DNA from: Oligoflexales bacterium | GTDB taxonomy: Bacteria > Bdellovibrionota_B > Oligoflexia > Oligoflexales > JAPPIL01 | DNA: 64,000 nt | NCBI GenBank assembly: GCA_965215515.1 | Contig: OZ244057.1 | Span: 1,824,001 to 1,888,000, forward strand | Direction: 5' to 3' | Shown here: positions 3,208 to 52,103 of the stretch, piece after piece | Numbering within the stretch: position 1 is the stretch's first letter | Layout of the letters: each line of letters begins with the position of its first letter | Position numbers and translations under genes: made by a program | The notes under the pieces: model-generated | Seen by the model: the letters and a program-made list of their open reading frames with translations, nothing else | The model's database searches: none | What the model was told of the DNA's origin: nothing

Positions 3208-3234
3208 TTATCGGTGGATAGTAGCTAAAATTTG
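3208..3234 (-). promoter_or_regulatory. Sigma-28 (FliA)-like promoter
   Basis: Minus strand reads CAAA-N15-ACCGATAA upstream of the TPR gene. Confidence 0.55.
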
Positions 3235-8765: not shown

Positions 8766-8792
8766 TTATCGGCTAAATTCTGGAGATATTTA
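8766..8792 (-). promoter_or_regulatory. Sigma-28 (FliA) promoter, perfect consensus
   Basis: Minus strand reads TAAA-tatctccagaattta(15)-GCCGATAA. Confidence 0.8.
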
Positions 8793-17171: not shown

Positions 17172-17198
17172 CCATCGGCAGCTCGGAGGAAAAAGTTA
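17172..17198 (-). promoter_or_regulatory. Sigma-28-like promoter
   Basis: TAAC-N15-GCCGATGG; would favour the downstream ATG at 17134 as start. Confidence 0.45.
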
Positions 17199-35775: not shown

Positions 35776-35938
35776 GAATATGTCGCTTGCGCGGTATGAT
35801 TGCCATTCAGGAACGTGATCGTGACCGCCGTTTCTGTACGCAGCATGGTATGCCGCAGGGGAGAGCGCACACGCAGGACGAAGAGATGTTGCAACGGTTC
35901 GACAAAGCAACTCCGCTTGTCCGCAGCTAGATCAGTAC
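35772..35938 (-). pseudogene. mtaB: Duplicated mtaB 3' remnant with internal 534-bp deletion
   Basis: 35774-35877 matches 50771-50874; 35873-35938 matches 51404-51469. Confidence 0.9.
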
Positions 35939-35975
35939 TGTAGATGCCCCCGTAAAAAACGGACACCCTATCGGC
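35939..35975 (+). mobile_element. IS2-like (IS3 family) left end
   Basis: TGTAGATGCCCCCGTAAAAAACGGACACCCTATCGGC; related copies at 17241, 43014, 46097 and 50481. Confidence 0.8.
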
Positions 35976-36018: not shown

Positions 36019-37233
36019 CTACTCTTTTTTCAGTTCACCCCAGGTGGTGGTTTGTTTGCCTTTTGCTGCGACAGGCATAGCCTTGGGGTGGGCGGCGATG
36101 AGGGTGACGATACGGGGCAGCTCAAGCTGGCGGGCGAGGTCTAGTGCCCTATGCCCGTCTGCGTTTTTGAGGAAGGGTTTGATGTCCTGGTGTGCAATGA
36201 GCCTAGCCACTACGTCATCGAAGCGCTTTAGCACCGCGTGGTGCAGGGCGGTCAGGCCGTCTTTATCCTGGGCGTTGATGTCGATACCTTGATGCTTGCT
36301 AAGCTCAATAACTAGTTCCTTGTAGCCTTTCAGTACCGCGTGGTGCAGGGCGGTCAGGCCGTCTTTATCCTGGGCGTTGATGTCGATGTCACGATCGTCG
36401 TTGAGCACCTCGCCTGCCCAGAAATCACTTCTTCCGTACTTGATCTCGAAGATCAGCGGGTATTTGGGGCGGCAACCCATGGGGTCTTCCTCTAACTCAT
36501 ATTCGGGAAAGGCACAGTCTTCCAGTGGCAGTCCCTCGTGCACATGCCTGTAGAGCCAGATGATACCGTTGATGTCGTCTTTGAAAAGCACGGCAAGGCC
36601 GTCAAGTGCGATAGGATCTTCGTGTCCTCTTATATCACCGCTCAAGGCCATCACGGAATTTGGCTGCGTGCCTCTAGTGTGCTTTAGACCGCCTTTACTG
36701 ACCCCTGGCTTGCCCCGCTCCTTCGTAGTAATGTAGGTATCGTCAAGACCGAAAACGTGCCCCATTTCGTGCATAAGGCTGTTCATAAGTTGTATCACTG
36801 CCTTCGTGCCGCTGCGCAGATTGATGCCAGGTGTGGCTCCTCCTACGAGTGCTGTGGAAGCGCCGAGACCGCAGTGGAAGATGATCCACATATCCCCTGC
36901 GGCAGGGCGAGGATCGGCAACAAGCCGATAACGAAAATCTTTGACGATCTGCTTGTCAGTGTAGTCACGCAACGGTTGTAACCAGGTACGCAAGGCTTTG
37001 CTGACTGCGCCAGTAAGTCTCTCATCGTTGTTTCTCGCCTCGGGCGGACAGTCGTCGCCGTAGCCGTAATTGATAACCAAGTGTGGTGCATGCACCTTGT
37101 TGATGAGCGCACCATGGAGACGCAATCGCTGCTCGTGATGAAGGGCCATGAACTTCTTGTCCGCGGGAGGCGGCGGACGCAGAATACAGGAAGTGAGGAG
37201 CACAAAAGAAAGGATGGTTAGCAGTTTCATCAT
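36019..37233 (-). CDS. Lipoprotein metzincin peptidase with ankyrin repeats, cassette 1
   Basis: AGGAG + MMKLL..LLTSC lipobox, HEMGHVFGLDD, Met-turn NSVM, INAQDKDGLTALHHAV x2, C-terminal KGKQTTTWGELKKE. Confidence 0.88.
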   Translation of the reverse strand: MMKLLTILSFVLLTSCILRPPPPADKKFMALHHEQRLRLHGALINKVHAPHLVINYGYGDDCPPEARNNDERLTGAVSKALRTWLQPLRDYTDKQIVKDFRYRLVADPRPAAGDMWIIFHCGLGASTALVGGATPGINLRSGTKAVIQLMNSLMHEMGHVFGLDDTYITTKERGKPGVSKGGLKHTRGTQPNSVMALSGDIRGHEDPIALDGLAVLFKDDINGIIWLYRHVHEGLPLEDCAFPEYELEEDPMGCRPKYPLIFEIKYGRSDFWAGEVLNDDRDIDINAQDKDGLTALHHAVLKGYKELVIELSKHQGIDINAQDKDGLTALHHAVLKRFDDVVARLIAHQDIKPFLKNADGHRALDLARQLELPRIVTLIAAHPKAMPVAAKGKQTTTWGELKKE

Positions 37234-40200: not shown

Positions 40201-40522
40201 ACCCCTGATCGCGATCATCGGCGTAGTCCCCACAATCACCCCTAGTACCGTCCTCATTCTTGTAGCCGATACCACCATCAGGGGCGAGCAACGCGGAGCC
40301 ACTGTAGTACCTGAAGTGCTCGATCTTATACACCGCCTGCAGACTAGCCAGATGGGCGAGGTTGCTCTTCGCCTCCCCCCGCCGTGCCTGCGCCAAGAAA
40401 GCATGATAACGCGGCAGCGCCAAGGCGACCAAAATGCCGATAACCGCCACCGCGACCATCAACTCCACCAAACTTAAACCCGCTCTCGTCCGCACCACTT
40501 CCCTTTTTTTGGCTAAAAACAA
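37250..40522 (-). CDS. Giant type IV pilin with Pro/Thr hinges and Cys-rich (TSP1-like) body, cassette 1
   Basis: Class III signal RAG|LSLVELMVAVAVIGILVALALPRY; WGEWSAC..RSRTC; true start probably GTG at 40498/40495. Confidence 0.88.
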   Translation of the reverse strand: MFLAKKREVVRTRAGLSLVELMVAVAVIGILVALALPRYHAFLAQARRGEAKSNLAHLASLQAVYKIEHFRYYSGSALLAPDGGIGYKNEDGTRGDCGDYADDRDQGLNNHLGFRPQACGQLRYFYQLRPGNVAVAFAYADAEGRYIYPDCHGGGREECDYTRGDAVRMALRDAKPTVCRNITKYCPAGIGAPPPPPPPTPTPTPPPPPPCDPTTQCCDGNTEVANTFSLTCNGWWGTFNDSAPNKGCCRRCGCTPWQPAVSDSRTDPNACEGESRYEYEPQTRTCRGWPPCPREARNRRVTVIGTKVCITPTPPTPTPTPPTPTPPTPTPDPTPTPTPTPTPPGRCDCVSSEGGWIAAEKPADVCACKNYTETKTTTITCTPIGTLPPGTTCPEETETIIIRTKEGLKPIAECTTTECPCREGDTRTECICVCKVMSAEITWNPLSEDYTCKEVTQTGNATADWEPHPNNPAGCQDGFSCPDEHTEFSRVVCGEKPVNCAANCRDWGEWSACARNAFVTDSSDPMYCHEMRSRTCSDPCAGVSSDGPCPVGVGFVRKNCPTSEAVACTGCVDTTDPPPPPPTPTPTPECNEYTNSNYCCADADDHEVKLRPSSDCLEDYTVNWNGDTVPPAPRCECAKGGVVTPPPEGCTENTNGNYCCDASDDMNSHADGGCGDDSRKVYWNSASGECECSEEPSDAAATLPEKTPTPQCSCRPEIGAWSPTVTVSRYTCQCKEQTAVTTNKCTPTSCPDHNKPMGMATRRVFGKTTPPHPQNCPTHVADPDNWGNCIDLNGNGNCKQQQVVTVSCNNPCEEGKTNVCIPIRTDQSASVLERDCPDDVHNPCETDNKLEENTCTRYRDGETVEIAEEACNSEGGSFILSGNPPNFYCECNSKCATYTHDGVTVEGFADVPYIYAEEYCLGTFNADQVAGKTYAFTCTCTPLEPPPPPPTPQLHELYKGCIVNAYNAARTDSMAGDKTGCAKKNNSLTCTRGDMIRAAAASASECGDNPPDEAGALTSQSRDCLEQIGRNLLTTAADDAGVEIFLENIKSSLLNEIGDSGNGCQKDSSHPPVSCASNDNCANAAPLLFE
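39490..39592. repeat. In-frame (GGYGTT)n/GGT simple repeat encoding a Pro-Thr hinge
   Basis: Visible hexamer runs; similar tracts at 38760-38793, 39893-39947 and 49729-49793. Confidence 0.9.
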
Positions 40523-40540
40523 AACTTTCCCGCGCGAACA

Positions 40541-40566
40541 TCATCGGCGTTTTTTTTTTCACTTTA
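40541..40566 (-). promoter_or_regulatory. Sigma-28-like pilin promoter with A10 tract in the spacer (14 nt)
   Basis: TAAA-gtg(A)10c-GCCGATGA. Confidence 0.62.
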
Positions 40567-40629
40567 GTTACGTTGCCAAAACCCCCAAATTACCATTGTC
40601 TACCTGCAATATTGCGGGAGAGAGGGAAG

Positions 40630-40688
40630 ATGGGGCGCTGCCCCATACCCCGCACAACTTTTTGAAAAAAGTTGGAGCAAAAACTCAA
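40630..40688. repeat. Palindromic REP/MITE-like repeat, copy B
   Basis: TGGGGCGCTGCCCCA hairpin plus CAACTTTTTgaAAAAAGTTG; inverted copy of 3314-3370. Confidence 0.75.
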
Positions 40689-40697
40689 TTCCTGAGT

Positions 40698-40929
40698 ACA
40701 GCCCCGCAAGCAATGGTATGGCAGAGGCGTTCGTGAAAACTTTTAAACGAGACTATGCCTATGTCAGTGACTTGAGTTCAGCAGATGTGGTTGAGCAAAA
40801 ATTGCATGTCTGGTTTGATGAATACAACAACGTTGCACCACACAAAGCACTTGGCATGATATCACCTAGGATGTATATGGAGTTCCAACAGGCTGGGTAG
40901 ACTGTCCGTTTTTTGGGGGCAACTCCACA
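40698..40929 (+). mobile_element. IS2-like transposase 3' fragment with right end
   Basis: SNGMAEAFVKTFKRDY..; nearly identical to the reverse complement of 44979-45210; ends GGGGGCAACTCCACA. Confidence 0.88.
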
Positions 40930-41070
40930 TCCCATACCGACGCAACATTGAACTTCACACCGAAGTGGGTGGCAAGTTTAGCAGCAGATTTCAGTTTGCT
41001 GGTAGGCACAGCAAGCCTTGCCAGGACGCAGTTTTTCAAGATGCGATTATTGAGCTCAGCGTGTCGTCCT
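40930..41070 (-). mobile_element. IS1634-like transposase internal fragment
   Basis: Translates ILKNCVLARLAVPTSKLKSAAKLATHFG, similar to IS1634 N-terminal motifs as I recall them. Confidence 0.5.
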
Positions 41071-44978: not shown

Positions 44979-45566
44979 TGTGGAGTTGCCCCCGTAGAGC
45001 GGACAGTCTACCCAGCCTGTTGAAACTCCATATACATCCTAGGTGACATCATGCCAAGTGCTTTGTGTGGTGCAACGTTGTTGTATTCATCAAACCAGAC
45101 ATGCAATTTTTGCTCAACCACATCCGCTGAACTCAAGTCACTGACATAGGCATAGTCTCGTTTAAAAGTTTTCACGAACGCCTCCGCCATACCATTGCTT
45201 GCGGGGCTGTATGGTCTCGTAGTACAAACATCAAAGCCCAGATACTTGGCAAACGTTGTCGTCTGCCTAGCAACGTAACAGGGGACATTATCCGATAGCC
45301 ACTGTATTCTGTGCGGCAATTCATCGCCAAAACGTGCACCTACACAGTCAACCATCAAGTCTCTAACAAGACCACCATCAACGCCGCATGTCGAGCACGC
45401 CCAGCTGATTACTTCACGATCGTGGCAATCCATGGCAAACACAACCTCGAGACACTCCCCGTTATCGCACTGGATTCTGAAAGTATCCGAACACCATCGA
45501 GTGTTGCTCCTCAACGTAGCCACCTTACCTTCGTGAACCCTTGTTGGCCTCGACGCATGCCTTCTT
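44979..45566 (-). mobile_element. IS2-like (IS3 family) OrfB integrase-core fragment with right end
   Basis: SNTRWCSD, DCHDRE, WLSDN, SNGMAEAFVKT; end TGTGGAGTTGCCCCC. Confidence 0.92.
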
Positions 45567-46096
45567 CTGAGTTCCGCAGGTAAATTTCCCAACATACTGT
45601 AATTATAGGGATATGCTTCCTGTGTAGGGCACTACATGTGCGCAAGTTTTGCGCAGTAGTTTAGAGCTTAAAGGGTGCAGAGGAGCATTTCAGTCCGACG
45701 ATGCGGTAGAGGTTTTTGGCCCGCGGGGAGGCTTTTATGTTAGGCATGCCATACAGCTCTCCTGTCTTGATGTGCCCTGAGACGATCGCCTTTGCGGTGG
45801 AATATGGGACGCATTTTGAGATCGTGTTTGGAGCTGCGAAAAGCTTCTTCGATCTCCCATAGGCGACGGTAAGAGGCTATTACCTTCCCCGCGGGTTGCT
45901 TGGAATTGGTAATGTACCCGCTGATGCCATCCCAGGCAGCATCACTGGCTGCCTTGTCTCGATTGATTTTAGCTGTCTTCTTGCTCCCAGTACCGAATTG
46001 GAGATATTTTTTGCTGCCGCTGTTCTTGACCAGATCTTTCACCGCTACCTCACCCTCGACCTTAGCCATCCTCTCCAGACGATCTAACAAACGAGC
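45567..46096 (-). mobile_element. IS1634-family transposase 3' remnant nested in the IS2-like element
   Basis: WDGISGYITN, YRRLWEIEEAFRSSKHDLKMRPIFH. Confidence 0.88.
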
Positions 46097-46133
46097 TGTA
46101 GATGCCACCGTAAAGAGCGGACACCCTATCGGC
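46097..46133 (+). mobile_element. IS2-like left end bounding cassette 2
   Basis: TGTAGATGCCACCGTAAAGAGCGGACACCCTATCGGC. Confidence 0.8.
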
Positions 46134-46222: not shown

Positions 46223-47401
46223 TCACTCCTCTTTTTTCAGTTCACCCCAGGTGGTGGTTTGTTTGCCCTTTGCTGCGACAGGCATAGCCTTGGGGTGGGC
46301 GGCGATGAGGGTGACGATACGCTTCATATTGCGTTGTTGGGCGAGATCTAGTGCCCTATGCCCGTCTGCGTTTTTGAGGAAGGGTTTGATGTCCTGGTGT
46401 GCAATGAGCCTAGCCACCAGGTCTTTGGAGCCGCTCAACACTGCGTAGTGTAGGGCGGTCATCCCTTTCGCATCACGGACATTGATTTTGATATCCTGGT
46501 GGCTGGTGAGTCTAGCTACCAGTATCAAGTAGCCCTTGAGCACGGCATGGTGCAGGGCGGTCAGACCTTCCTTGTCTTGGACGTTGATGTCGATGTCAGG
46601 ATCGTTCTTGAGCACCTCGCGGGCCCAGAAGGATTTCCCTTGTTTGATCTCGAAGAGCAGTGGGTGTTTAGGGCGGCAACCCCTCGGGGTTTCCTCCAGT
46701 TCGTAATCAGGAAAAAGACACTCTTCCAGCGGTAAACCCTCGTGCCTGTGTCTGTAGAGCCAGACGATGCCGTTGATGTCGTCTTGGCCGAGATCGCCAA
46801 TCTTATTCACAAAATGTGAGTGTGAACTCATTATGGAAGCGGGCTGTGTGCCCTTAGTGCTAGGTAAACCGCCTGTGCTAGGGCCTGGCTTGCCCTTGTA
46901 GGTGTCGGAGAGACCGAAAGCATGCCCAACTTCGTGGATAAGGTTGTTCATAAAGATTGCTGTCCTCATGCCGCGACGCATGTTGATGACAGGGCGATTG
47001 TCCCTCAGTTGAGCATTGGAGGTATCAAAATTACAGTGGAAAATGACCCGCAGATCTTCGTCGTGGGGGCGGGGAACGGCGACGCGCTGAGAGCGGAAAT
47101 CTTCAACGATCGGCTTGTCAGTGTAGTCGCGCAATGGCTGCAACCAGGCACGTAAGGCTTTGCCGATGGCGGCGGTAAGTGCCTCGTCGTTATCCCTTTC
47201 CTCGGGCGGACAATTGTCACCGTAGGTATAAGCGATGTCCAGGTGCGGCGCGTGCACCTTATTGATGAGCTGACCATCAAGATTAAAACCTTCCCGCCAC
47301 CAGCGATGTTGCTGCGCGATAAACTTCGTATCCGTGCTCTGCGGACGCACTATGCAGGACAATAACAACAGAGCGAACGACAAAAAAAGTGAGTGTCTCA
47401 T
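46223..47401 (-). CDS. Lipoprotein metzincin peptidase with ankyrin repeats, cassette 2
   Basis: LLLSC lipobox, HEVGHAFGLSD, ASIM, ankyrin repeats, KGKQTTTWGELKKEE. Confidence 0.88.
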   Translation of the reverse strand: MRHSLFLSFALLLLSCIVRPQSTDTKFIAQQHRWWREGFNLDGQLINKVHAPHLDIAYTYGDNCPPEERDNDEALTAAIGKALRAWLQPLRDYTDKPIVEDFRSQRVAVPRPHDEDLRVIFHCNFDTSNAQLRDNRPVINMRRGMRTAIFMNNLIHEVGHAFGLSDTYKGKPGPSTGGLPSTKGTQPASIMSSHSHFVNKIGDLGQDDINGIVWLYRHRHEGLPLEECLFPDYELEETPRGCRPKHPLLFEIKQGKSFWAREVLKNDPDIDINVQDKEGLTALHHAVLKGYLILVARLTSHQDIKINVRDAKGMTALHYAVLSGSKDLVARLIAHQDIKPFLKNADGHRALDLAQQRNMKRIVTLIAAHPKAMPVAAKGKQTTTWGELKKEE

Positions 47402-47413
47402 GAGCGTATCCTC

Positions 47414-50368
47414 CTAAGGACAGACTTCGTTATCCTGCAAGGTTGTAACACTAGCAGCAGCGCAACCGCCGAAAGCACATCGATCGAGTGCTTCGAAGAG
47501 ATAGGGAGTTGATTCGTCGAGAAGGCTTGGAACTGGATGCTCAGGATCGTTGTCTAGTAGTCGTCTATCTATAAATTTTCTACATTCTATGCTCATGCTA
47601 CTCTTGCTTGTTGTACCCGCATAGAAATAATCCCACCACAGTTTTTGAGAAAGAGCACCCTGGTACTGATCCCCTTCAATAATGCCACCTGCAAATAGAG
47701 AATTGGGGTCGTCGTTTACAACGTCTGCATATGTTTGACAATCAACAGGAATCCTCCCTGTACTCCCGCTAGGAGTACCATATTTGAGAATGTTTTGTAC
47801 CTCACCAAGCTTGAGATGACTATAGTTAGTGCAAGCGTCCATGGCTGTAACGGGGGCGTAGCAGTCGCACGTTCCTTTGCCAGGAGACCATAAGAAAGGT
47901 GCATAGCCCTCGGGGCAGGAGGGAACACATGGCTCACCTTCTTTTGGTGGTTGTGTCGTTGGTGTTGGTGTAGGCTTCACAATGCAAATACAGTTGAAGG
48001 AGAGGGGTCTATTATTCACTTGATTTTTCTCTAGGGTGTGACCATCACCACCACCTTCGCATCCATGTGTTGCGGCATCGACAGTTATCGGCAACTGTAG
48101 AGAAGGAGTAGGGCTATCGTCACTATTTCTGTACGATATACACTGCCCCACACAGGTACATGCAATGGATGGCGAATCACCCGTTGATGCAAAGTGACCG
48201 CCTAGACCTTCACAGTGACTCTCTACACCATAAACCGTCTTTACGCTGGGAGCAGTAGTATAACTACCTGTGTAGCTGACGCTATCACAGACAGGATCAG
48301 GCGGTGTCTCTGTCGGAGGTAGAGAGCCGCTGTATTTGCAACTCCCCGTACACTTATCAGTGTCGAAACTCCAGCTCATACTAGCCCCGCTGCAGGTGCA
48401 GCCGCCACTGTTCCACGTGCCGCTAGCTTTGGTGCATGCAGTTTTCTCAGCGTCGTCAGAACACACGCACTTGCCTGTCGAACCAACCCCGAACACAGAC
48501 AGCGCCTTGTTGAGCAGGCTGAATGAAGTACGAGCAGAGAAGTTCCATACCTTCTTGGGATCAGAGCAAGTGCACTTGCACCTATTATCGTTCCAGGTTG
48601 CCTCACTCACGTTGCCGCATGCGTTTTTCTCATTACCAGTACTATCAGGGCACTGACACGTACAATTACTCGAATTGTATACTCTGTTCACGTATGTCGT
48701 CCCATCGCTGCTGTTGCAATTGCAGCCACTACCATATGTAGCCCTTTTCTGATCCTGACAGCTGCCGCCCGTCGTCCCATCCAAACAGGCATTCTCACAC
48801 TCTTCCACTTGCACCGCCTGCCCTCCCGAGCATTCTTCAGTTTCAGTAATGGGTTCTGTTGGCTGTTCTGTCTCTGACTTCTTCTTACACACGCACTTAC
48901 CCTCCATCCAGATGACGGTGTAGTCTGAAGTTGGATTTATACAGGGGTCATCTTGAAGCACGCCTTCGTCGCTGCAGCAGTAGTGGGTATTGTGGTTGTC
49001 CTCCTTGCATCCTTCGGGCTCCTCAGTTTCAATGGCGGAGCAGTCACACGCATCTGGGTCCAAGTCCGTGTTCCAGCTGATTGTGTATGCATCATCACAG
49101 TTATCACCGCTGGGAATGACACCACCAGTACCTTCCTCACTGCAGCAGTAGTTGCTCATGTTGCGCTGTCGGCATTCTTGGCCTTCATCCTTAGGACTGC
49201 AAGTGCAGTTAGCACTATCAACCCCGTGTGGGCAATCAGTAGCAGTAAGTGGACACTCGCACTGGCAGGTCGTGGAATTCCAAGTCGGTGTGGCAGAGGG
49301 GCAGGTGATGCCAGCTTCTGCAGCAGTAGCATATAGACACTGGCACTGGCAGGTTGTGGAATTCCATGTGTAGTTGCCAGTACAAGACTGTGGAGCACAT
49401 CCACATTGGCAGTGACTGGGAATCCAGGTGTAACCTGCAGCACAATCATCTTTGCTTTTTTTACATATACAACAATCAGGCTTACTTATATCTGTTTCCC
49501 ACCCGCCAACTTTGGCGCAGGTGGTGCATGGGGGGGGGGTAGTACACGTACAAGTAGTACCATCCAGCACTGCTGGGGGAGTGCAGGTACGATTGCAGGC
49601 ACAACAATCGTTATGGTGAGCAGTAACATCAAAGCTCCAGTCGGAGTTTAACCCAGCTTTATCGCAGGTTGTCTTTGGGTTTCCATACTCTCCTTCAGGA
49701 CAACACTGCGTTGCTGGGTTGCATGTCGGAGGTGGCGGCGTTGGTGTCGGATCAGGCGGTGGTGTTGGTGTTGGCGGAGGTGGCGGCGGTGGTGCCCCCA
49801 TTCCCGCGGGGCAGTACTTGGTGATGTTGCGGCAGACCGTGGGCTTGGCATCGCGCAACGCCATCCTCACCGCATCACCCCGCGTATAGTCACACTCCTC
49901 TCTCCCCCCGCCATGACAATCGGGATAAATATACCTGCCCTCATCATCGGCATACGCAAAGGCAACCGCCTCATTACCAGGACGTAACTGATAAAAATAA
50001 CGTAACTGTCCACAGGCTTGCGGACGGAAACCCAGATGGTTATTCAACCCCAGATCGCGATCATCGGCGTAGTCCCCACAATCACCCCTAGTACCGTCCT
50101 CATTCTTGTAGCCGATACCACCATCAGGGGCGAGCAACGCGGAGCCACTGTAGTACCTGAAGTGCTCGATCTTATACACCGCCTGCAGACTAGCCAGATG
50201 GGCGAGGTTGCTCTTCGCCTCCCCCCGCCGTGCCTGCGCCAAGAAAGCATGATAACGCGGCAGCGCCAAGGCAACCAAAATGCCGATAACCGCCACCGCG
50301 ACCATCAACTCCACCAAACTTAAACCCGCTCTCGTCCGCACCACTTCCCTTTTTTTGGCTAAAAACAA
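47414..50368 (-). CDS. Giant type IV pilin with Cys-rich CXCXC-repeat body, cassette 2
   Basis: Same N-terminal ~190 aa as cassette 1 (4 differences seen); WNSTTCQCQC, WIPSHCQCGC, WNDNRCKCTC. Confidence 0.88.
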   Translation of the reverse strand: MFLAKKREVVRTRAGLSLVELMVAVAVIGILVALALPRYHAFLAQARRGEAKSNLAHLASLQAVYKIEHFRYYSGSALLAPDGGIGYKNEDGTRGDCGDYADDRDLGLNNHLGFRPQACGQLRYFYQLRPGNEAVAFAYADDEGRYIYPDCHGGGREECDYTRGDAVRMALRDAKPTVCRNITKYCPAGMGAPPPPPPPTPTPPPDPTPTPPPPTCNPATQCCPEGEYGNPKTTCDKAGLNSDWSFDVTAHHNDCCACNRTCTPPAVLDGTTCTCTTPPPCTTCAKVGGWETDISKPDCCICKKSKDDCAAGYTWIPSHCQCGCAPQSCTGNYTWNSTTCQCQCLYATAAEAGITCPSATPTWNSTTCQCECPLTATDCPHGVDSANCTCSPKDEGQECRQRNMSNYCCSEEGTGGVIPSGDNCDDAYTISWNTDLDPDACDCSAIETEEPEGCKEDNHNTHYCCSDEGVLQDDPCINPTSDYTVIWMEGKCVCKKKSETEQPTEPITETEECSGGQAVQVEECENACLDGTTGGSCQDQKRATYGSGCNCNSSDGTTYVNRVYNSSNCTCQCPDSTGNEKNACGNVSEATWNDNRCKCTCSDPKKVWNFSARTSFSLLNKALSVFGVGSTGKCVCSDDAEKTACTKASGTWNSGGCTCSGASMSWSFDTDKCTGSCKYSGSLPPTETPPDPVCDSVSYTGSYTTAPSVKTVYGVESHCEGLGGHFASTGDSPSIACTCVGQCISYRNSDDSPTPSLQLPITVDAATHGCEGGGDGHTLEKNQVNNRPLSFNCICIVKPTPTPTTQPPKEGEPCVPSCPEGYAPFLWSPGKGTCDCYAPVTAMDACTNYSHLKLGEVQNILKYGTPSGSTGRIPVDCQTYADVVNDDPNSLFAGGIIEGDQYQGALSQKLWWDYFYAGTTSKSSMSIECRKFIDRRLLDNDPEHPVPSLLDESTPYLFEALDRCAFGGCAAASVTTLQDNEVCP

Positions 50369-50386: not shown

Positions 50387-50411
50387 TCATCGGCGTTTTT
50401 TTTTCACTTTA
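50387..50411 (-). promoter_or_regulatory. Sigma-28-like pilin promoter with A9 tract in the spacer (13 nt)
   Basis: TAAA-gtg(A)9c-GCCGATGA. Confidence 0.58.
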
Positions 50412-50468: not shown

Positions 50469-50481
50469 GGGGGCATCTACA
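50469..50481 (-). mobile_element. IS2-like left-end stub closing cassette 2
   Basis: GGGGGCATCTACA lies exactly where homology with cassette 1 ends. Confidence 0.65.
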
Positions 50482-50761: not shown

Positions 50762-50762
50762 A

Positions 50763-52103
50763 CTATCCCGAGGAATGTGTCGCCTGTGCGGTGTGATCGT
50801 CGTTCAGGAACGTGATGGTGACCGCCGTTTCTGTGCGCAGCATGGTATGCCGCAGGGGAGAGCGCACACGCAGGTAGTTGCGGCTGTAGCCGAGCATCTC
50901 GTCGCCCTCAGGGCGTTCCCACAGCACGTGGGTTTTTTGTCCCACAAACCTTTGATAGTAGGCTCGTTTAAGCTGTTGCGAGAGCGCGCTGAGCTGCTTG
51001 CCGCGCGCTTTGATGGTAGCGGAAGGCACGTGCCCTGGCATGCGTGCCGCAAGCGTGTTAGGACGGGGCGAATAAGGGAAAACATGCAAGTAATGCAAGC
51101 CTACCTGTCGTGCACAAGCAAGGGTCGCACAGTGGTCGCGCTCGTCCTCGCGGGGAAAACCACAGATAACATCGCTGCCAAACATCGCGTCAGGAAAAAG
51201 TCGCCGTGCTGCCTTGAGACGAGCGCAGTAGTGCTCCACACTGTATTTGCGCCGCATTTTGCGTAAAATTTTGTTGCTCCCCGATTGCAGCGGCAGATGA
51301 AAGTGAGGACAAAAAACATCACGGTGCTCGGCCAACACTTGCAACAGAGCATCGCTCAATTCGGACGGTTCGAGTGACGAAATACGCAGGCGGCGCAGAC
51401 GAGGCAGGGCGAAGAGACGTTGCAACAGTTCGACAAAGCAACTCCGCTTGTCCGCGGCTAGATCAGCACCGTAATCGCCGAGATGCACGCCCGTCAGGAT
51501 TATCTCGCCACACCCCTGCTCGGTCAGTGCTTTAACTTGTGCAATAACCTTCGCCGAGGGCACACTCAGCGATGCCCCACGCGCATAGGGGATGATGCAA
51601 TAGGTGCAAAACCCGTTGCAGCCATCCTGTATCTTGACATACTGGCGGGTAGTGTTGCTGTGGACATAATCGCTGAGTGTCTGTGCCAGCTTGAAGTGTG
51701 CCTGCCTGTTAGCGGTGACGGGTTTGGCATCGGCGGGTAGTTTGTCGCCCTGTCCACGCCGCTGCAAGCGCGCGTTAAGCAGCGCGACGAGATCTGCTTT
51801 GTGACTGTTGGGGACGACGAAGTCGATGTCGGGATGTTCGCTCAGCGGGCCTGAGTTGGTCTGTGCATAACATCCCGTGATAACGAGAAACGCCTGCGGG
51901 TTAAGACGACGCACGCGCCGCGCATAGTAGAGTGCCTCCTGTTCGGCACGTGCAGTGACGCTACAGCTGTTAATGATGGTGATCTCTGCTTGCGCTATGT
52001 CCTCGCTCAATTCAAACCCGCCTCGACACAGCTGAAAGTTAAGGACATGCGCATCGAAGGCGTTGACCTTGCAACCCAGTGTTTTGATAAAAACCGATGG
52101 CAT
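50763..52103 (-). CDS. mtaB: tRNA t6A37 methylthiotransferase
   Basis: TLGCKVN, INSCSVT, KIQDGCNGFCTYC, LTGVHLG, HVFPYSPR. Confidence 0.94.
   Translation of the reverse strand: MPSVFIKTLGCKVNAFDAHVLNFQLCRGGFELSEDIAQAEITIINSCSVTARAEQEALYYARRVRRLNPQAFLVITGCYAQTNSGPLSEHPDIDFVVPNSHKADLVALLNARLQRRGQGDKLPADAKPVTANRQAHFKLAQTLSDYVHSNTTRQYVKIQDGCNGFCTYCIIPYARGASLSVPSAKVIAQVKALTEQGCGEIILTGVHLGDYGADLAADKRSCFVELLQRLFALPRLRRLRISSLEPSELSDALLQVLAEHRDVFCPHFHLPLQSGSNKILRKMRRKYSVEHYCARLKAARRLFPDAMFGSDVICGFPREDERDHCATLACARQVGLHYLHVFPYSPRPNTLAARMPGHVPSATIKARGKQLSALSQQLKRAYYQRFVGQKTHVLWERPEGDEMLGYSRNYLRVRSPLRHTMLRTETAVTITFLNDDHTAQATHSSG

Follow-up and report, generated by a model that had tools for sequence, protein, structure and literature searches.

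The window analysed here, a 64,000-nucleotide stretch of DNA, lies in the single closed contig (2.18 Mb) of the Oligoflexales genome G000, which makes up the family considered below together with three other related uncultured genomes, G001-G003. On its minus strand the window carries two copies of a cassette in which a FliA-type (sigma-28) promoter with a pure run of A's in its spacer precedes a gene for a giant pilin-headed protein. The pilin gene is followed at a short distance by a gene whose translation contains an HExxH motif and ankyrin repeats (Table 1).

The promoter sequence that the initial annotation had given for the two genes was confirmed exactly. Copy 1 (minus strand, 40566-40541) reads TAAA-GTG-A10-C-GCCGATGA, with a spacer of 14, and copy 2 (minus strand, 50411-50387) reads TAAA-GTG-A9-C-GCCGATGA, with a spacer of 13. 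A -35 box TAAA(G) and a -10 box resembling GCCGATAA are thus present upstream of both pilin genes, with the CGAT ~45-50 nt from the start codon as in the sister promoters, and alignment of the 12 full cassette copies of the genome shows that the promoter and leader form a near-identical block. The pattern TAAA-N13..17-GCCGATNA has three matches in the window where 0.13 are expected, and none of 100 shuffles reached three. The comparison promoters that had been quoted as having 15-nt spacers fared unevenly: the one at 8766-8792 does so with a perfect TAAA, the one at 3208 only if CAAA is taken as the -35 box (16 if TCAA), and the one at 17172 with an imperfect -35 box (TAAC). Other readings of the promoter region were tried as well. 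The T run of the plus strand gave no terminator-like match as an antisense intrinsic terminator, its four folds being no different from shuffles (z -0.57 to 0.85); no sigma-70 promoter was found at 40300-40800, and no Rfam family matched up to E 1.

Table 1. Features of the two cassette copies, in window coordinates
Feature	Position	Strand
Giant pilin-headed protein, copy 1, ~1081 aa	37250..40498	-
HExxH (metzincin-like) + ankyrin gene, 16 nt after the stop of pilin copy 1	36019..37233	-
Shared promoter-leader block, from ~70 nt upstream of the -35 box through the leader	40499..40630	-
-35 box TAAA (within CTAAAG), copy 1, FliA-type promoter	40563..40566	-
A10 tract in spacer, copy 1; spacer 14, one base below register	40550..40559	-
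-10 box GCCGATGA, copy 1	40541..40548	-
Giant pilin-headed protein, copy 2, ~975 aa	47414..50344	-
HExxH + ankyrin gene, 12 nt after the stop of pilin copy 2	46223..47401	-
-35 box TAAA, copy 2	50408..50411	-
A9 tract in spacer, copy 2; spacer 13, two bases below register	50396..50404	-
-10 box GCCGATGA, copy 2	50387..50394	-

The genes behind the two promoters had been described as pilins, a name that holds for their N_methyl start but covers proteins of 1081 and 975 residues. Both have a prepilin cleavage motif with Gly-1 and Glu5, and PF07963 scores above its cut-off over residues 1-27; at the cleavage site, G|LSLVE, the +1 residue is Leu instead of the usual Phe. Copy 1 is laid out as a constant 183-aa head, a Pro linker and a variable Cys-rich tail, and the two window proteins are 98% alike in residues 1-183 and nearly unalignable beyond, except for one 35% patch. 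Only the head was identified when the proteins were searched against Pfam (up to E 0.1) and in the ESM Atlas, and the TSP1-like and CXCXC-like motifs picked out by eye in the tails had no Pfam support. Judging from the preceding purine-rich stretch, copy 1 would start at a GTG at 40498 or 40495, and it probably shares one transcript with its HExxH-ankyrin gene. For the pilus assembly ATPase, TIGR02538 gave two full-length matches (621 and 563 bits) below its cut-off of 676, as were the controls.

The surroundings of the cassettes bear marks of rearrangement. An end motif, TGTAGATGCCCCC, with ~70 sites genome-wide, borders the cassettes at 35938-35975, 46096-46133 and 50470-50481 of the window; at 45008-45595 there is an rve integrase gene, part of which recurs inverted at 40697-40932. 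The spread of the cassette looks like an IS-mediated process. At the far end of cassette 1, the segment 35765-35942 joins duplicates of two fragments (50762-50874 and 51404-51473) of the radical-SAM gene at 50763-52103, and further fragments of this gene lie near 45684 and 21840. At locus L091 (7649-11314), contigs of the sequencing runs discussed below are joined in such a way that some parts of the pilin tail are missing or substituted, which may be consistent with modular shuffling or may merely be other copies mapped there. The coding region of pilin copy 2 contains a C10 run (49530-49539, G10 on the plus strand), for which a paralogue at G000:C1 1600130 has C11 (G11) with identical flanks; it is possible that this run is a second, frameshifting switch, even if the paralogue is already broken upstream.

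FliA is encoded at a single locus in G000 (TIGR02479, 274.6 bits, above cut-off), and its closest relatives among the matches listed, at 84-85% identity, are labelled Oligoflexales. Flagellin matches were found in none of the four family genomes, which are 86-94% complete, while the control matched 4 of 14. The neighbours of fliA (L001 358-2654, G000:C1 ~1446100-1448400) include a gene with a C-terminal part that we presume by eye to resemble FliO, and perhaps a gene that we likewise take to be PilZ-like. It is possible that this neighbourhood is a relic of a flagellar cluster.

The difference in tract length that had been noted between the two window copies extends to the rest of the genome. 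The cassette promoter occurs in 15 copies, most of them 97-98% alike, of which 14 precede a pilin start and one an unrelated short ORF. Their tracts range from A8 to A11 and their spacers are 12 (two copies), 13 (four), 14 (six) and 15 (three), the A11 tracts being at three loci other than the two described above. When the 12 full copies are aligned, the tract is the sole place in promoter and leader where more than two lengths occur, and the neighbouring A7 run differs in only one of them. Two copies that are three substitutions apart over 560 columns have A11 and A10, and a pair of sisters has A11 and A9 in a tree of the 12 copies that is mostly unresolved (2/9 branches starred) and on which tract changes were left uncounted. 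The two copies with spacer 12 are broken genes, the three with spacer 15 all have long open frames, and truncation or a frameshift affects 3 of the 14 copies linked to a pilin. Two HExxH-ankyrin genes stand without a pilin: the one at G000:C1 1969341 has its own tract promoter with A11 (spacer 16) and an intact 361-aa frame, and at G000:C1 2172451 an A9 tract (spacer 14) precedes a 19-codon stump.

The promoter class is wider than the cassette. G000 has 24 poly-A FliA-type promoters with runs of at least 8, nine of which precede non-pilin genes. Seen from the runs themselves, 17 of the 24 A/T runs of at least 10 have N2-4 CGAT behind them on the A strand, compared with 1.2-1.9% after runs of 4-8 and 0/24 after T runs on the same strand, and only 1/24 lies deep in an ORF. 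A looser pattern gave 26 vs 1, 40 vs 3, 8 vs 0 and 9 vs 1 matches against a reversed control in G000-G003, respectively, and in 37 other genomes mostly stayed at background level, G007 being an exception (7 vs 0). A stricter pattern, derived from the family's own sites, matched 4 of 131 genomes, all of them in the family, and none of the 127 others. A scan of JGI metagenomes for the cassette promoter returned no matches.

In the stretches sampled from the relatives we found 37 sites in G001 (A9-A15), 7 in G002 and 8 in G003, counting sites with at least nine A's and leaving out four shorter ones (A7-A8, all out of register); with the 24 of G000 they form a pooled set of 76 tract promoters. Judged at motif level, the genes behind them have a pilin motif in 19 cases, a loosely defined lipobox in 41 and neither in 16, and single-linkage clustering sorts 72 products into 27 families, a number that is an upper bound as some products are cut at locus ends. 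The flanks differ between gene families and between genomes while the pure A run is retained, and the G001 loci at A13-A15 retain full-length frames. The switch for choosing a pilin variant that the initial annotation had proposed is therefore not a two-pilin device; what stands in its place is a family-wide promoter class before many unrelated surface genes.

Some long runs of G000 lie outside this class. Of the seven long A/T runs without CGAT, four (G000:C1 305681, 2062567, 1036219 and 1075101) are in sigma-70-like contexts, and at 305681 and 2062567 the other strand has TTGACA, a spacer of 16 or 15 filled by T10, and TACAAC or TACAAT. It may be that these sigma-70-like T10 sites represent the same device in a form read with the housekeeping sigma factor. 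A FliA-type promoter at G000:C1 1607694, before a 475-aa exported protein, has a 15-nt spacer that is in register and includes a T9 run, and G/C runs of 23, 14 and 13 occur at G000:C1 377377, 519729 and 1036101.

Which spacer length works was judged from promoters that have no tract, an argument that rests on genome statistics. Promoter-positioned TAAA-N-RYCGAT sites of this kind in G000 number 18 at N15 and 13 at N16 as compared with one at N14 and two at N13, over a background of ~2, for gene starts called crudely by ORF length; the peak is absent away from gene starts. Ordinary FliA-type promoters of G000 have spacers of 15-16 in 31 of 37 cases. In 27 genomes of the order outside the family, sites exceed the reversed control at N15 (581 vs 343) and N16 (482 vs 303) and not at N14 (296 vs 357). 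The tract promoters are distributed differently, with 4/24 in register in G000 and 11/76 in the pooled set, or 12/76 once nine variant -35 boxes are read as lying one base further. A Fisher p of 2e-7 overstates the case because paralogues are not independent. The pooled spacers are 12 in three cases, 13 in 21, 14 in 35, 15 in nine, 16 in two, 17 in two, 18 in three and 19 in one. The commonest state, A10 with N14, accounts for 35/76 promoters in the pooled set, 19/37 in G001 and 4/8 in G003, and is modal in all four genomes, with a tie in G000.

Spacers in which the run has been interrupted give a further view of the register. Among pattern matches selected by eye for family flanks and an A-rich but interrupted spacer, all five with no A run longer than 6 are N16, and the five in which a run of 8-9 survives have N16, N15, N14, N14 and N13. 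N16 is also the spacer of two G001 giant-pilin paralogues whose promoters have no tract. Since the working register of G000 is 15-16 and not 13-14, A11 and A12 would be the in-register lengths of the cassette and both window copies would be short, with spacers of 14 and 13 outside the register that 3 of the 15 sister copies fall within. We would class the two window sites as out-of-register states and not as active promoters. The expectation that A11 is the ON length is borne out insofar as A11 is in register, and has to be widened to A12 (spacer 16), which is equally so. That both copies are weak or OFF agrees with their being out of register; as A10 is the modal state and may be partly active, copy 1 may be weak and not off. 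No measurement of FliA activity at shortened spacers was found among the accessible papers.

Length differences were also sought in contigs of sequencing runs. Seven sequencing runs contain the stretch, none recorded as RNA, and four were compared (X1, X2, X4 and X5) at a 12-kb locus that contains a single-copy sister promoter besides one copy of the cassette; X5, from a relative and with patchy cover, contributed nothing usable for the tracts, and X1, X2 and X4 come from a single study, with the source of the assembly perhaps among them. At the cassette tract, contigs of X1, X2 and X4 have one T more and one T less than the assembly, at several times single-copy depth. Length variants of the cassette tract are thus present in the runs, although these contigs pool all copies so that +1 and -1 cannot be assigned to one locus. 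The depth ratio of +1 to -1 contigs in X2 differs from that in X1 and X4, the depths being means over piled copies. The sister tract is A15 in long contigs of X1 and X4, which are identical to the assembly over 3.6 kb, and A17 in the main X2 contig (15 kb, depth 75), with no other change over the 3.6 kb; further X2 contigs cover this tract, bringing the total depth there to 219. The change from A15 to A17 shows that the tract is mutable and the assembly accurate; it does not show switching, both states being out of register. A length difference between samples at one locus is thus seen for the sister promoter, where one of three runs differs, and may also occur at the window copies, whose contigs are pooled.

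We consider it probable, on the strength of the sequence comparisons, that these are slipped-strand contingency promoters that would be ON at A11-12, with both window copies weak or off. This reading builds on the observed boxes and anatomy, the register statistics and the length differences from copy to copy and from sample to sample. In a flagellin-less Oligoflexales lineage, FliA would serve a regulon of exported proteins, as the promoter boxes suggest, and would read the whole class found in the family, the two window copies included; in a subset of this regulon a pure A run would fill the spacer between -35 and -10. RNA polymerase with FliA would need a spacer of 15-16, that is, A11 or A12 in the cassette, so that spacers of 15-16 would fire, 14 would be weak, and 13 or less or 17 or more would be silent. 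Replication slippage would shift each locus by one A per step, independently and presumably reversibly. Against this reading, MutS and MutL are both present in G000 and would slow slippage at A9-11. In the bulk population most loci would lie one or two steps below register and be weak or silent, and therefore a cell would strongly express few of its ~12 giant-pilin and protease cassettes and sister cells would differ. The 40541 copy (A10) would be one slip from ON and the 50387 copy (A9) two; each cassette would switch alone, bringing its protease gene along, and the variable Cys-rich tails may act as pilus-borne adhesins. A spectrum with 14 > 13 > 12 and a thin tail past 16 would be expected from stepwise loss of a costly ON state, although N14 as the commonest state would also be expected from a fixed working A10 design.

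That last point leads to a different account, in which N14 with a pure A10 would be the normal working state and A9 or A13 and longer would lower expression, making the tract a rheostat centred on A10. The 40541 copy would then be ON and the 50387 copy down, and most of the repertoire would be expressed together while still being tuned by length. An A-tract spacer wound tighter than mixed DNA could bring this about (the helical repeat of A-tracts is near 10 bp per turn), as could an activator bridging the gap, and the account fits the mode at N14 in the pooled set and G001, with the tie in G000, as well as the mostly intact genes after N14 promoters. It sits poorly with the tract-free promoters, which avoid N14 (one site vs 31 at N15-16), and with a spectrum that declines from the register window (35 at 14, 21 at 13, 3 at 12) and has a small tail of 6 at 17-19. 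Moreover, ten A's add twist equal to about half a base, and with such a gain A11 would be best and A10 only partial. We judge this account unlikely. A rather improbable one is that the run is a fixed promoter element, a bend or a protein site, copied by block duplication, and that its lengths reflect neutral drift or paralogue decay with no selected switching. The cassette copies do descend from one block, with IS-like ends nearby and most copies 97-98% alike, and the truncated or frameshifted ones (3/14) could be read as decay, but the pure run is kept while the flanks vary among gene families and genomes, the A13-A15 loci of G001 keep full-length frames, and spacers whose run has decayed are 16 and not 14.

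Homopolymer miscalls are a known fault of long reads, and G000 is one closed contig for which the library type of the runs is unrecorded, so that all tracts could in principle have one true length. We regard this as highly improbable. The X1 and X4 contigs match the assembly without difference over 1.46 kb and 3.6 kb, the A15 tract included, and three runs have the A9 and A11 variants in contigs whose depth is several times that of a single copy. The A7 run adjacent to the tract differs in a single one of the 12 aligned copies, and G003, in 280 contigs, likewise has A10 and not A11-12. Of the A/T 8-mers in G000, 173/274 lie deep in intact ORFs, DNA that makes up 70% of the genome, which argues against general frameshifting.

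We put at somewhat below even the chance that part of the post-flagellum FliA regulon works as a genome-wide lottery, in which 20-40 promoters stand one slip short, each cell entering the FliA phase draws a private handful of adhesins, lipoproteins and proteases, and interruption of the run is an evolutionary lock to ON. Were this true, one promoter design, placed before dozens of gene families that are unrelated to each other, would combine developmental gating with stochastic choice. Most known promoter switches of the homopolymer type belong to animal pathogens and act on single genes or on one family. The device here appears to be built into an alternative-sigma regulon in a Bdellovibrionota lineage without a flagellin match, with 24 loci in one genome and at least 37 in a relative. 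It would offer a possible route to cell-to-cell variation in prey or host recognition, and DNA reads would suffice to tell the predicted ON/OFF state of every locus. Dozens of naturally occurring alleles, with pure and interrupted spacers of 12-19, also provide a series for studying the tolerance of FliA to spacer length and A-tract geometry.

With regard to membership among contingency loci, a repeat between -35 and -10 and its polymorphism are observed, and an effect of length on expression and frequent, reversible switching would be predicted. Among the literature matches listed, from a search of sources other than subscription journals, there was no precedent for homopolymer phase variation under sigma-28/FliA or in Bdellovibrionota/Oligoflexales. 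Spacer tracts are found before porA, opc and fetA of Neisseria meningitidis; its nspA promoter is not of the FliA type, and the sabA tract of Helicobacter pylori lies beside the boxes and not between them. In N. meningitidis nspA, a poly-A promoter tract is A5 or A6 and is reported to show no evidence for phase variation (PMC6389960). As described there, the amount of a surface protein in a Gram-negative cell changes when a promoter tract gains or loses a single A, which resembles the present case. In H. pylori, the T tract of sabA is reported to act as a rheostat, homopolymer length being linked to graded adhesin expression (PMC4081817). Both nspA and sabA are single genes, unlike the set described here.

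The use of FliA outside the flagellum has a parallel in Bdellovibrio, where FliA serves two thirds of attack-phase promoters, including those of surface anchors and proteases, with the sequence TTAAG-N16-CCGATA (PMC3627812), and where FliA of Bdellovibrio bacteriovorus drives a pilin operon promoter in E. coli (PMC5430801). The likeness lies in a FliA regulon extended to non-flagellar surface anchors, proteases and pilins, and the Bdellovibrio consensus as given there corresponds to a spacer of 15 or 16 in our count, depending on how the -35 box is aligned. Homopolymer spacers such as those found here are absent from the FliA promoters described in the available text of these papers (PMC3627812, PMC5430801). 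Bdellovibrio also keeps its flagella, whereas 0/4 genomes of the present family have a flagellin match.

The closest parallel is Mycoplasma hyorhinis with its vlp system, in which surface paralogues are each turned ON or OFF as the A tract in their promoter gains or loses bases (PMC10502178). As far as the accessible part of that report goes, the two have in common surface paralogues that each have their own transcript, an A tract in the promoter, and a constant N-terminal and a variable C-terminal part. Here, by contrast, the boxes are of the FliA type, the genes lie scattered over the chromosome of a diderm Oligoflexales host and have short tracts (A8-15), and many unrelated families (giant pilins, lipoproteins, a protease) are involved; the vlp genes are one family in a cluster, and their longer tract is read with the housekeeping sigma factor. 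What sets the present case apart is the FliA boxes, the many unrelated families at dispersed loci and the lineage, and by analogy the promoters may work in the manner of vlp.
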